From Candidatus Iainarchaeum sp. (lineage in GTDB: Archaea > Iainarchaeota > Iainarchaeia > Iainarchaeales > JAFCCJ01), in contig JBDRHK010000050.1 in the NCBI GenBank assembly GCA_043816965.1, positions 1 through 24,622 on the forward strand: 24,622 nucleotides of DNA. The letters are read 5' to 3'. The position numbers are program-made. Positions 9,001 through 12,000 of this stretch are shown here, in pieces (position 1 is the first letter of the stretch; each line of letters opens with the position of its first letter).

Positions 9001-12000
9001 AGGTCTTTAATTTCAGTAATCTTCTTGGTCCCCATATTATCTCCTCCTGTGAAGGTCGGTGTTTGGGGAACGCCTTTTGGGTATGGGCTCCCCCCTGACT
9101 GCCTTCACTCATACTAATTAGATTCAGCCCTTTATAAATAGTTTTGGGGGTGGGTTTCCGGTGCGAAACCCCTATCCGGGTTTACGGGACGGCGTCCTCG
9201 CGGAGGACACCATGCTCGCTACGCTCGCAAATAAAATACGGCTTCGCTAATTACCCAACCCTGCTAACAACAATCTCATCATCGCCGAACATGTTCTTCT
9301 TTACCCGTCCAACAATCGTAATTTCCTTCTCCTTTAATTTCGGCAATAGTTCCTCAACAATATCCTCGGGATTTTTCCTTTCAAGCAGATCCCTGAATTC
9401 ATTATTATCCAAACCCAATAATTTCTCCCCGTCCCCGCCAAAACCAACAACGCCAATGCTTGCGGTGTCATCCTCAATCTCAACCTTAACCAATGCCTTC
9501 TTTTTTGGGTTTTTAACCTCGCCACACTTTTCACAAATATAATTCTCTCCTATCTGCGAAACAGATTTCCCGCATTTTTCACAAACAAGGTAATGCAACT
9601 TCCCTGGCCTGATTTCACCAATCTTCCCTGTGATTTTAACCATCTCATTCCCCACAATCTGGTTAATCTTTTTTTCCTCTGCATTTTCCGCGCTCAATTC
9701 TGCAAGCGCAGGCATTTCCCTCTTCGGGTTTTTCAGAATCCTTGCCTTCCAGCCCAGATTCAGCTCAACCCCCTGTAGCCCTTCCTTTGTGTAGGCCCCC
9801 TCAACCTTTACCAAATCACCGACACTCAATTCCTTCAATACATCAACCATCTCATTCCAGGCAGCGGCCCTGCACCTTCCCTTTTCATCGGCAAGCAGGA
9901 AATTCCCGACCTTTCCCGAGCCCTTTTCAGAACTGAACTCGCGGGCCTCAAAGATTGCGGCAATCCTCGCAAAAACATCAACATCTCCAAAACCAGCAAC
10001 TAATTCATTCAGATTAAGGGTCTTTGATTCAGCTTCAGGAAGTTCCAGTTTCTGCTTCTCATCCAGAAGCAACTGCCCGCCCTTTCCCAAATTCATCTGC
10101 AATTTATCATTGAAAGATTTTGTGTAACAGCCTTTCAGCATAATTATGGAGCCGCGCTCAATCTTAAGGTCATTTAATTTATCCACATCATCATTCCAGA
10201 TAGTTAATCTCATTTCCCCTGAATCGTCGTCAATAATCAGGCTGCACAATTTTCCGCTTTTTCCGCCCTTCTCAAAACCCTTTGGCTGGAAAATCTGCTT
10301 TGCCCTCACACTCAGCGAGATGCCATTCATCCCCTCTTTCAGGTCAGAAATTTTTATCCTTTTGCTGCCGCCCCCAGAAAGCTCAACCCCCATCTCTTTT
10401 GCAACCATAAATGCCGCCCCCTGCTCACTCAGCAAGCCGGAGAATTTCTCCATCTTGTCAGATATTTTTTTCTCTACTGATTCCTTACTTTTGCCGGCAG
10501 AAACAATCTTTTTGACAATGTCCTCTTTTGATTCCAGTGAAGGGTTCATTTCAATCAACAGCCTGAAATATTCAGAAACTGAAATATTCTAAAGGGGGTA
10601 TGTTATGTAGAAGTTATTTCCCTAACAAGCTTTTTAAGCCATTTCGCACTCTTTTTTCTGTGATTCCCGGTGTTTGAGGAGGTTTTTCCCAATTTATTTG
10701 CTTTTTACGCGACCGATTACAGTGCGAATTCTTATCTTTTAGTGGGCAAAAAGACGGTTTTAATAGACACAGGCCTTAAATCAAGGGGGCCAGCATTAAA
10801 GGATTCTTTAGCTGCAGTGGGTTTTGAGCCTGAGGACATTGATGCTCTACTCCTAACGCACGGGCATTCTGACCATTTTGGCGCCTCCTATATCTTCCCA
10901 AATGCCGAGAAATATATGCACAAATTCGATGCCACATATGTGAACATTAAGGACGTGATATTTACGGCAGCCGCAAGGCTCAATAACCTCTATTTCCCCA
11001 GAATCACCAAAAATTATGAAATTGATTCCATTATTGATGTTGCCCCCTTTAAATTGAAGGTTTTAAGCACCCCGGGGCATACACTAGGCAGTGTCTGCCT
11101 GTATGATGAAAAAAACAAACTCCTTTTCAGTGGAGACACCATTTTCAATGGCTCTGTGGGTAGGCATGACCTTCCAAGTGGAAGCAAAATGGACCTAATA
11201 GATTCCCTGAAAAAGCTTAAAGAACTGGATTTTGACTATCTTTTCCCAGGCCATGGATTAATGCTCAAAGAGGGACAGGAAGAGAACATTAAAATGGGCA
11301 TTGAGATGCTTTCCCAGTGATAAGGATTTTTATAAATCTATCCTACCAAATAATATTGAAGGCAATCCATATGACAAAGCATTTTGGGCAGTTCTACAAG
11401 AGAATGGTGGATGACATTTCCGAACAGGGAGGATTAACCTTTTTGGTTATTGACCCCCCAAACCAGTCGCCGGAGATAGCCGGCAGGACAGCAAAACTTG
11501 CCGAAGAGGTTGGTGTAAGCGCAATTGCGGTTGGCGGAAGTGTTGGCGCCCAGGGGGAACTTCTTGACGGAACAATTCTCCAGATAAAAGAAAATTCCTC
11601 CCTCCCTGTTGTGCTTTTTCCGGGGAACATTGCAACAATTTCCAAGCACGCAGACGCGATTTATTTCATGTCAATGCTGAATTCGCTTGACCCTTATTAC
11701 ATTTCCGGCGCGCAGACAGTTTCCTCAATGCCGATAAAGAGATTAGGCCTTGAGCCAATTCCCACCTCATACATAATAGTTGAGCCAGGAAGGGCTGTTG
11801 GCTGGGTTGGAAGGGCTAAAATAATTCCCCGCGAACTTCCTTACCTTGCGGCAGCAACAGCTTTAGCTGGGGAATTCATGGGGGCGCATTGCTGCATCCT
11901 TGAGGCAGGCGGAGGGGCGCCTTCCCCGGCACCTCCTGAAATGGTGAAAATGGTAAAGGATGCAATTGACATTCCCTTAATTGTTGCAGGCGGGGTAAGG

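Follow-up and report, generated by a model that had tools for sequence, protein, structure and literature searches.

To our knowledge, archaea have few known cis-regulatory RNAs, and riboswitches in particular are rare there. Archaeal translational feedback via structured mRNA is represented by L7Ae, which acts on a K-turn in its own 5′ UTR, and by the L1 site of Methanococcus. The small H-type pseudoknot riboswitches (preQ1-I/II, SAM-II, SAM-V and fluoride) hide the ribosome binding site by means of a pseudoknot and carry A-rich strands beside a hairpin, and the pseudoknot of T4 gene 32 lies far upstream of the start codon, where it nucleates cooperative protein binding. This gene, which encodes a single-strand-DNA protein, is described in a review (PMC3014915) as being under translational control via a pseudoknot-containing 5′ leader. 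For Escherichia coli rpsO, PMC3985624 presents a repressed pseudoknot form in balance with an open hairpin form, the operator being bound by its product in the pseudoknot form only. The open-access literature yielded no cis-regulatory RNA described for radA or for DPANN lineages.

Here we analyse the 5′ leader of radA in a 24,622-nt window (contig JBDRHK010000050.1, assembly GCA_043816965.1) of Candidatus Iainarchaeum sp. Like the rpsO operator, the leader carries a hairpin loop that is predicted to pair downstream at the initiation region. The rpsO operator differs in being bacterial, in preceding a ribosomal-protein gene and in having a known effector, S15; the radA element adds a further closing helix and a loop rich in A between its stems, resembles the rpsO operator in neither sequence nor model and has no match in Rfam. 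As in T4 gene 32, a putatively pseudoknotted 5′ leader precedes a gene of DNA metabolism, but the T4 pseudoknot is distant whereas the radA loop would pair with the start codon itself. Size and A-rich strands are similar to those of the small H-type riboswitches, which usually sequester the Shine-Dalgarno (SD) sequence and serve ligand-linked genes, whereas the radA element would sequester the AUG. Finally, the L7Ae and L1 sites mimic ribosomal-protein sites in rRNA; a K-turn/L7Ae motif was rejected for radA, whose consensus internal loop (A-A-N / A-A-A-A-A) lacks the tandem G-A pairs.

Nested fold and promoter of the radA leader

A two-stem element before radA had been proposed in the survey's finding, and both the sequence and the RNAfold prediction bear it out. 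The leader at 9108-9049 of the minus strand folds into a stacked hairpin composed of an outer stem (GUGAAGG 9108-9102 with CCUUCAC 9055-9049), an A-rich asymmetric internal loop and an inner hairpin (9093-9085 with 9074-9065) with the loop ACCCAAAA. This structure was obtained both as the MFE and as the centroid fold, at −26.8 kcal/mol. The AGGAGG ribosome site abuts the outer stem directly, rather than after the 3-nt gap reported previously. Relative to the family consensus, P1 is shifted and the internal-loop strands are longer in this copy. The individual features are listed in Table 1.

Table 1. Features of the radA locus and its leader in the window
Feature	Position	Strand	Basis
ACCGGAA, promoter-upstream DNA element, outside the RNA	9156..9162	-	Sequence; 17 nt before the TATA hexamer
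TATA box TTTATAAA of the radA promoter	9131..9138	-	Sequence
P1 5′ strand GUGAAGGC	9101..9108	-	MFE and centroid folds; homologous P1 covaries
Asymmetric internal loop, 5′ strand AGUCAGG (family consensus A-A-N)	9094..9100	-	Fold
P2/P3 5′ strand GGGGAGCCC	9085..9093	-	Fold; P2 and P3 covary in the family
Apical loop AUACCCAAAA	9075..9084	-	RNAfold
Predicted pseudoknot 5′ strand, loop CCCA	9078..9081	-	Complement of UGGG 9034-9031; family-wide covariation
P3/P2 3′ strand GGCGUUCCCC, one base bulged	9065..9074	-	Fold and family covariation
Internal loop, 3′ strand AAACACC (family consensus AAAAA)	9058..9064	-	RNAfold
P1 3′ strand GACCUUCAC, one base bulged	9049..9057	-	MFE and centroid folds
Shine-Dalgarno AGGAGG, immediately 3′ of P1	9043..9048	-	Sequence; GGAGG or GAGGUG in the equivalent position of relatives
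Predicted pseudoknot 3′ strand UGGG: U and G of AUG (9035-9033) and bases 1-2 of codon 2	9031..9034	-	Complementarity, RNAduplex
radA coding sequence, 316 aa	8085..9035	-	TIGR02236 recomb_radA, E 3.5e-141, 470 bits, cut-off 361

The folding energy of the element was compared with that of shuffled sequences. The 68 unique homologous elements have a median z of −2.01 (35 at or below −2, 57 at or below −1, two above 0), whereas the window's 91-nt stretch reaches only −1.72 against dinucleotide shuffles, with 11 of 200 folding equally well, and is thus not significant alone; the 57-nt element by itself gives −3.59.

Given the usual archaeal spacing from the TATA box, transcription of radA would start near 9110-9106, which predicts a leader of ∼72-76 nt instead of the ∼100 nt estimated earlier. 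The same spacing would put the 5′ end of the RNA at the base of P1, and in 56 of 65 homologous leaders the TATA hexamer is followed after 26-32 nt by the first modelled pair of P1. Among 148 unique radA upstream regions, 74 of 80 regex matches have the ACCGGAA motif 16-18 nt before the TATA box. This motif also stands ahead of MCM, NurA and other genes of the same genome.

Several other features were considered and rejected. A 61-aa upstream frame from the ATG at 9112 begins no later than the putative start site, runs into radA in another frame and lacks conservation, and antisense frames at 8770-9117 and 9144-9542 (plus strand), opposite radA and rpa, were regarded as spurious. A terminator or attenuator does not fit, as the sequence after P1, AGGAGGAGAUAAUAUG, contains no run of T. 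Masking of the SD by an anti-SD-like strand would require the 3′ CCUC of P2 or the 3′ CCUUC of P1, neither of which is conserved across genera by eye. An SD-masking thermometer of the ROSE or fourU kind was likewise discarded: the SD lies 3′ of P1, is unpaired in the MFE fold and has a median unpaired probability of 0.52 over 68 leaders.

Distribution and covariation of the family

A first covariance model, R1, was built from nine seed sequences. In 208 kb of radA loci it returned 28 matches at E ≤ 1, of which 27 immediately precede radA in the sense orientation; even with filters off, divergent members could not be separated from noise, true sites scoring 8-13 bits amid false ones. Since R1 was too weak for divergent members, the seed was enlarged from metagenome and genome loci and model R2 was built. 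R2 produced 71 matches in 178.5 kb of radA loci, 65 of which lie directly upstream of radA. At E ≤ 1 such a match was present in 57 of 128 unique metagenome and genome loci and in 16 of 30 related genera, and inspection of MFE folds by eye revealed the common architecture in 22 of the 30, in agreement with the earlier statement that relatives share it. Conversely, 71 of the 128 unique radA loci and 14 of the 30 genera of the order have no detectable element at this threshold. The element is thus dispensable, because about half of the radA loci in the order are without a detectable copy.

In the organism's own 1.34-Mb genome the radA leader is the sole significant R2 match (34.6 bits, E 1e-5), followed by a runner-up of 19.9 bits (E 0.14). 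Matches located just 3′ of radA (loci L220, L160 and L157), inside radA (L098), at L087:1969 and at L172 proved to be stretches that are A-rich or resemble terminators and in which P1 is weak. Eleven whole-genome matches were inspected, ten of 23.9-27.3 bits and one of 33.1; three were radA leaders and eight fell in coding or promoter-less DNA away from radA, so that whole-genome matches below ∼28 bits are mostly false. As the extra matches inspected were of these kinds, no second target gene emerged. The element is tied to radA and occurs once per genome.

Comparison with Rfam 15 (4227 models) gave no match at gathering scores in the 24.6-kb window and none even at E ≤ 1 in 20 radA leaders, the models including those of the small H-type riboswitches (preQ1, SAM-II/V and fluoride) and the bacterial radC motif, which upholds the survey's statement that no Rfam family lies at the site.

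Pairing was evaluated on the 71-row R2 alignment, which is fitted to the model and still includes six off-target rows. In it, 87.4% of cells are paired, against 51.8% after shuffling (none of 500 shuffles reached the observed value) and 36-42% in slid controls. All 15 modelled pairs change on both sides, with 370 both-side changes in cells compared with 115 in shuffled alignments; for P1 alone, five of five pairs changed on both sides and 89% of cells are paired. On a plain MAFFT alignment, which is not fitted to the structure, P2 still has 78.7% of cells paired and five of five pairs covarying. G-U cells outnumber A-C cells by 66 to 42, which leans to the sense strand, the counts being governed largely by a single conserved G-U pair of P2 (GU in 39 and GC in 14 of 71 rows).

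Set among these variable helices are unpaired positions that hardly vary. Columns 11 and 12 of the 5′ internal-loop strand are A in 47 and 64 of 65 rows, and columns 81 and 83 of the 3′ strand in 64 and 65 (98-100% for A12, A81 and A83). The (G/C)CCAAA motif of the loop is almost invariant, its C, C and A being present in 57, 63 and 55 of 65 rows (85-97% for the loop CCA). Because all three helices covary strongly, the element is placed exclusively in front of radA and Rfam has no match, the comparative data support the survey's proposal that the 5′ leader of radA holds a conserved, structured cis element not described before.

Complementarity of the apical loop and the start codon

A new finding of this analysis is that the apical loop is predicted to pair with positions +2 to +5 of the open reading frame, comprising the UG of the start codon and the next two bases, which would generate a pseudoknot (in the window, CCCA 9081-9078 with UGGG 9034-9031). 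Across the family, the loop sequences GCCA, CCCA, ACCA, GUCA and GCUCA complement UGGC, UGGG, UGGU, UGAC and UGAGC, respectively. The loop 4-mer is complementary to +2 to +5 in 65 of 68 unique instances, or in 57 when only Watson-Crick pairs are admitted. GCCA/UGGC (38), CCCA/UGGG (17) and GCCG/UGGC (6) predominate, ACCA/UGGU, GUCA/UGAC and CUCA/UGGG were found once each, and no crossed combinations occurred among the 68.

Tests independent of the covariance model point the same way. Of 148 unique radA upstream regions, 77 carry an exact complement of +2 to +5 in a hairpin loop of their MFE fold, whereas permuted targets give 32.8 ± 3.8 (maximum 45 in 1000) and other offsets 2-11, apart from 43 at the overlapping offset +3. 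On the plain MAFFT alignment, the four pseudoknot pairs are 94.1% paired, compared with 84.1% after shuffling (0 of 500 reaching it) and 14-46% when slid, and pair 33-92 occurs as GC in 42 rows, CG in 19 and AU and UG in one each. When the 77 complementary rows were placed on a RadA tree, several forks of which are weakly supported, parsimony counted at least 12 compensated changes of the paired 4-mer, and sister pairs such as L093/L172 (support 100) differ in both the loop and the start strand. A conservative test retained four independent pairs, two of them on well-supported branches; all point the same way, but four is too small a number for significance. As three of the four base pairs barely vary, the covariation rests mainly on one position and a few rare double changes.

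The core of the pseudoknot comprises only 4 bp, with an RNAduplex energy of −6.5 kcal/mol between the loop and the start region. Longer versions were rejected: extension to +6 is present in 31 of 65 leaders, about the level of chance (∼37% expected), and extension to the A of the AUG in none of 65. With the nested fold alone, the AUG and the SD remain about half unpaired (medians 0.55 and 0.52 over 68 leaders), so the pseudoknot would be the occluding contact. The gating of translation proposed in the survey thereby gains a concrete candidate basis, in that the loop complements the UG of the start codon plus two bases and the pairing covaries.

Proposed translational gating and alternative readings

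We consider it likely that the radA leader is a cis-regulatory RNA specific to the lineage of Iainarchaeum-like DPANN archaea, a pseudoknotted structure (∼9110-9031, minus strand) that gates RadA translation. Comparative support for this view comes from the helices, from the predicted pairing of the pseudoknot, from the unpaired bases that do not vary, and from the exclusive association with radA in one copy per genome. In the proposed mechanism, the leader would stack P1, P2 and P3, with the A-rich asymmetric internal loop between P1 and P2, and the apical loop would pair with +2 to +5, burying the start codon and holding the SD in the connecting strand. Initiation would be blocked or slowed in the pseudoknotted form, and RadA synthesis would thus be gated at translation, presumably by repression. 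The gate is probably toggled by a protein or ligand (a small molecule or an ion) that would read the invariant A residues and shift the balance between open and pseudoknotted forms. As in translational operators, a hairpin loop of the 5′ leader can pair with the gene's own initiation region, with covariation; as in riboswitches, an aptamer-like fold in the 5′ UTR combines covarying stems with invariant unpaired bases.

One version of this explanation, which we advance only tentatively, is a protein-bound translational operator, in which a DNA-metabolism protein would stabilise the closed form under feedback control. The binder of the A-rich internal loop or the pseudoknot might be RadA, the RPA-like single-strand binding protein whose gene lies just upstream, or some other factor. 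The invariant unpaired A residues and the conserved P2 G-U pair suggest a recognition surface, the element has a single gene target, an rpa-like gene directly precedes radA in 19 of 30 related loci, and S15 on rpsO and T4 gp32 on its own mRNA would be parallels by analogy. However, this synteny does not track the element, because the rpa-radA order is kept in leaderless loci too (L016, L018, L022 and L023), and both RadA and RPA are single-strand binders of little sequence specificity.

The other version, a new class of riboswitch, is rather doubtful. Here a metabolite, nucleotide or ion reporting the state of DNA damage or replication would bind at the A-rich three-way interface and thereby set the pairing of the loop with the start codon. 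The element is compact (∼55 nt plus the pseudoknot), its near-invariant unpaired nucleotides lie beside freely covarying stems, and a pseudoknot at the ribosome binding site could serve as the expression platform, much as in small H-type pseudoknot riboswitches. Against this stand the rarity of the class in archaea, the lack of resemblance of the 20 leaders to any Rfam riboswitch, and the occurrence of the element once per genome before one gene family; with radA the only gene served, no metabolic logic points to a ligand.

An element without any effector is likewise unlikely. A constitutive fold might lower RadA output, shield the 5′ end of the mRNA from 5′-3′ exonucleases or act as a thermometer, in keeping with the putative 5′ end at the base of P1, a weak 4-bp pseudoknot that would melt easily and the loss of the element in many lineages. 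This reading leaves unexplained why the unpaired bases A12, A81, A83 and the loop CCA-A-A hardly change in identity amid freely varying stems.

A DNA-level site, with the inverted repeats as a dimeric transcription-factor operator or a cruciform between the TATA box and the start codon, appears very improbable. Archaeal repressors do often bind in the region immediately after the promoter, which is where the element lies, but its arms change sequence while remaining complementary, 66 cells are G-U, and the loop and start codon covary over ∼45 nt, which such a protein operator would not predict. It is scarcely credible that the hairpin is due to chance, or to artefacts that arise when short G+C-rich leaders are folded and alignments are fitted to a model: the modest z of the 91-nt stretch, the failure of R1 with divergent members and the mostly false low-scoring genome matches would suit such a reading, but 65 of 71 R2 matches lie at radA, model-free and MAFFT-based tests concur, and the median z is −2.0 across 68 elements.

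RadA dosage matters for archaeal genome maintenance, and a 2024 study (PMC11409957) connects the level of RadA with the mode of DNA replication. If the riboswitch reading were true, the leader would be the first known riboswitch for a recombinase gene, and also the first one confined to DPANN archaea, and it would provide protein-free control of homologous recombination in symbionts with minimal genomes. More generally, the radA leader may hold a new motif through which RNA recognises a protein or a ligand. Its clear anatomy and the testable prediction linking the loop to codon 2 therefore make it a tractable route into the control of recombination in archaea with reduced genomes.

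The radA locus and its leader in the window

In RNA sense, from about position 9108, the leader of radA reads GUGAAGG, an A-rich strand, a G-rich stem, the loop AUACCCAAAA, a C-rich stem, a second A-rich strand and CCUUCAC. The resulting hairpin is both the minimum free-energy (MFE) and the centroid structure (-26.8 kcal/mol; RNAfold, positions 9120-9030), so that sequence and fold agree with the two-stem anatomy described in the survey's finding. The survey had also placed the SD sequence 3 nt from the element and given the leader about 100 nt; AGGAGG in fact abuts the outer stem, and the TATA position together with the usual archaeal spacing implies a leader of ~72-76 nt. 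In 56 of 65 leaders, the first modelled pair of the outer helix, P1, follows the TATA hexamer by 26-32 nt, a distance at which the transcript should begin at the base of P1, which is often extended.

The window's single sequence exceeds chance only weakly: 11 of 200 dinucleotide-preserving shuffles of the 91-nt stretch folded equally well (z = -1.72). The 57-nt element alone yielded z = -3.59. For the set of 68 unique homologous elements, z had a median of -2.01, with z ≤ -2 in 35, ≤ -1 in 57 and > 0 in two.

Features of the radA region and related loci
Feature	Position	Strand	Remarks
RPA-like single-strand DNA binding protein ORF	9251-10558	-	directly upstream of radA; best match NF006255, E 1.1e-52, under that model's cut-off
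T-rich run	9238-9229	-	rpa-radA spacer, just after rpa stop; likely rpa terminator
Inverted repeat GGTGTCCTCCGCGAGGACGCC	9211-9191	-	small; rpa-radA spacer
Inverted repeat AAACCCGGATAGGGGTTT	9183-9166	-	small; rpa-radA spacer; kept in sister genome (locus L002)
Motif CACCGGAAA		-	rpa-radA spacer; from sequence
Promoter-upstream element + TATA	9162-9131	-	A[CG][CT]GG[AC]A, mostly CACCGGCA, CACCGGAA or CAGCGGAA
TATA box TTTATAAA	9138-9131	-	from sequence
Leader, covariance-model match	9106-9050	-	34.6 bits, E 1e-5
Pseudoknot strands	9081-9078 with 9034-9031	-	CCCA with UGGG; RNAduplex -6.5 kcal/mol
SD AGGAGG	9048-9043	-	after CCUUCAC
Start codon AUG of radA	9035-9033	-	
radA ORF	8085-9035	-	316 aa; TIGR02236, E 3.5e-141, 470 bits vs cut-off 361
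DUF1003 membrane-type protein gene	7601-8035	-	after radA; PF06210, E 6.8e-36
NOL1/NOP2/sun RNA cytosine-C5 methyltransferase gene	6677-7600	+	convergent neighbour; TIGR00446, E 4.2e-71
Intein-/LAGLIDADG-related loci, window's genome	G000:C5:4372-7911; G000:C15:44648-47104		

The rpa-radA spacer measures 215 nt. In 19 of the 30 related loci rpa is the gene immediately 5' of radA; because the same order also occurs at loci without the leader, this adjacency is only a weak lead to an effector. On the other side of radA, the DUF1003 gene is conserved in the sister genome alone. Five related genomes (G002, G010, G025, G027 and G032) have radA reading frames of 861-1325 aa with a partial RadA match, which is what inserted inteins would produce. 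For the window's genome, LAGLIDADG domains were identified within an intein of MCM, and a LAGLIDADG-like insert in an Obg-like GTPase.

A regex for the DNA element upstream of the promoter matched 80 of the 148 unique upstream regions of radA (loci L001-L220). The element precedes the TATA hexamer by 16-18 nt in 74 of the 80, and it is also present at loci that lack a structured leader. A partly complementary, co-varying arm (AGCGG..CCGCT, AGTGG..CCACT) often follows it. In the window's genome the element is present on contigs C2, C5, C15, C22, C38, C57, C61 and C96, and its extended form precedes 12 ORFs, among them radA, the intein-containing MCM, NurA, the Obg-like GTPase, two PIN proteins and a MazE-like protein; a looser pattern gave 32 matches, barely above the 21 in the control. 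It may serve as the binding site of a transcription factor whose regulon covers replication and repair.

Distribution and covariation of the leader

Of 41 related genomes, 38 yielded radA; the 30 loci retrieved represent 30 genera of one order. Judged by eye from MFE folds of the 95 nt upstream of each start codon, 22 of the 30 share the architecture (loci L001-L015, L017, L019-L021 and L024-L026), the other eight (L016, L018, L022, L023 and L027-L030) having short or different leaders. As each sequence's own fold pairs by construction, covariance models were built. The first, R1, comprised nine aligned leaders with a 15-pair structure set by hand; on the 30 loci it matched its seeds only, and divergent members were not separable from noise. 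A further 160 radA loci from metagenome and genome contigs provided 157 usable loci and 128 unique upstream regions. Among the 100 loci closest in RadA (208 kb), R1 gave 28 matches at E ≤ 1, of which 27 stood immediately 5' of radA in the sense orientation. These 28 rows, one stray included, formed the seed of the enlarged model, R2. When applied to 85 long and 15 short loci (178.5 kb), R2 returned 71 matches: 65 were located 9-27 nt before the radA start codon, and the remaining six were A-rich or terminator-like stretches. The other 58 loci gave 10 matches, eight at radA.

In the model-fitted alignment of 71 rows, in which six off-target rows were left, standard pairs occupy 87.4% of 984 cells (shuffled 51.8 ± 1.2%, reached in 0 of 500 trials; slid 36-42%). 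Both sides change at all 15 pairs, in 370 cells versus 115 after shuffling, and the covariation score is 0.762 versus 0.196. Because a fitted alignment leans towards its structure, the count was repeated on a plain MAFFT alignment of 68 unique leaders; all five pairs of the inner helix P2 covary there, with 78.7% of cells paired. The survey's claim of an architecture conserved in relatives is upheld by this covariation and by matches at radA (E ≤ 1) in 57 of the 128 unique long loci; 16 of 30 genus representatives also have such a match.

In the window's own genome, the radA leader is the sole significant match, the next scoring 19.9 bits. Whole-genome tallies, which are rough in both directions since they include false matches and miss known weak leaders, gave a match in 29 of 151 genomes order-wide (E ≤ 0.01, stricter filters; patchy by family) and in 28 of 151 of a phylum-wide draw, with none in the 11 genomes of five families unique to that draw. 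Inspection of 11 whole-genome matches (ten at 23.9-27.3 bits, one at 33.1) placed three at radA and eight elsewhere. Consistent with the survey, the leader has no Rfam match: no family reached its gathering score anywhere in the window, and none reached E ≤ 1 in a set of 20 leaders.

With the six off-target rows dropped (65 rows), the 5' strand of the internal loop reads A (47/65), A (64/65), N, and the 3' strand A/G, A (64/65), A (65/65), A (55/65), A (54/65). The second pair of P2 is G-U in most rows, and the apical loop has the consensus [G/C]-C-C-A-A-A. Unpaired bases this close to invariant argue for recognition, whether by a protein (RadA, the RPA-like protein encoded next to it or a different one), by a small ligand or ion, or within the tertiary fold of the RNA itself.

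Pairing between the apical loop and the start codon

Placed side by side, loop and start of the reading frame are complementary: GCCA-AUGGC, CCCA-AUGGG, ACCA-AUGGU, GUCA-AUGAC. Among 68 unique instances (73 rows at radA minus five duplicates), the loop 4-mer is complementary to positions +2 to +5, that is, U and G of AUG plus the first two bases of codon 2, in 65 with G-U allowed and in 57 by Watson-Crick pairs only. The combinations are GCCA/UGGC (38), CCCA/UGGG (17), GCCG/UGGC (6) and, once each, CUCA/UGGG, ACCA/UGGU, GUCA/UGAC and UCCG/UGGG; three fall short by one or two pairs (UCCA/UGGC, ACCA/UGGG, UCCA/UGAC). The crossed combinations GCCA/UGGG and CCCA/UGGC were absent from the 68.

Model-free tests covered all 148 unique radA upstream regions. 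An exact complement of +2 to +5 occurs within -80 to -20 in 86 (permuted targets 51.4 ± 4.3, none of 1000 reaching 86; other offsets 11-55) and inside an MFE hairpin loop in 77 (permuted targets 32.8 ± 3.8, maximum 45; other offsets 2-11, overlapping offset +3, 43). Among the latter is a fifth type, GCUCA opposite UGAGC, carried by leaders that the model had missed (L027, L098, L134, L137 and L140). In the MAFFT alignment the four pairs are formed in 94.1% of cells (shuffled 84.1%, 0/500; slid 14-46%), the variable pair being GC in 42, CG in 19, AU and UG in one each and other in five. The core has 4 bp, three of which scarcely vary, and extension to +6 (31/65) is at chance level.

In a RadA tree from FastTree that left out residues 1-6, both partners change eight times; a conservative independent-pair test retained four pairs, two of them on well-supported branches. 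All four point the same way, but a sign test would need more. A quick IQ-TREE tree built from the 77 complementary rows requires at least 12 changes of the paired 4-mer, with well-supported contrasts at L093/L172 and at L089 and L209, each inside a UGGC clade. A pseudoknot between loop and start codon is well supported by these sequence comparisons, and we consider it highly probable.

Loci L006, L126, L152 and L195, a single clade, have a leader without GGAGG. The UCAC within their apical loop is not complementary to the start codon; by eye, in this one clade and with no covariation, it is complementary to an SD-like GUGA or GUGG 10-14 nt before it. These may represent a variant whose loop masks the ribosome site.

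Predicted control of radA translation

In the nested fold alone, the median unpaired probability over 68 leaders is 0.52 for the SD sequence and 0.55 for AUG. Both are thus about half accessible, and the contact between loop and start codon would therefore be the occluding feature. For the strand that links P1 to AUG (~14-32 nt, carrying the SD sequence), contact with the apical loop would require a path back alongside the stacked helices. Bending at the A-rich, asymmetric internal loop would ease this return, and the adenines of that loop are of the type that docks into helix grooves in H-type pseudoknots. We read the element as a two-form translational gate. The open form would consist of the hairpin alone, with SD sequence and AUG free; in the closed form the pseudoknot would bury AUG and the linker would hold the SD sequence. 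The closest mechanistic parallels are the operator pseudoknot of rpsO/S15, the leader of T4 gene 32 and small pseudoknot riboswitches.

Full-text searches of the literature outside subscription journals did not turn up any account of an RNA in the radA leader or of cis-regulatory RNAs in DPANN archaea. The leader is real, conserved and specific to radA within a subset of the Iainarchaeales. It represents a new family, a leader pseudoknot that would act as a translational operator or in a riboswitch-like manner.
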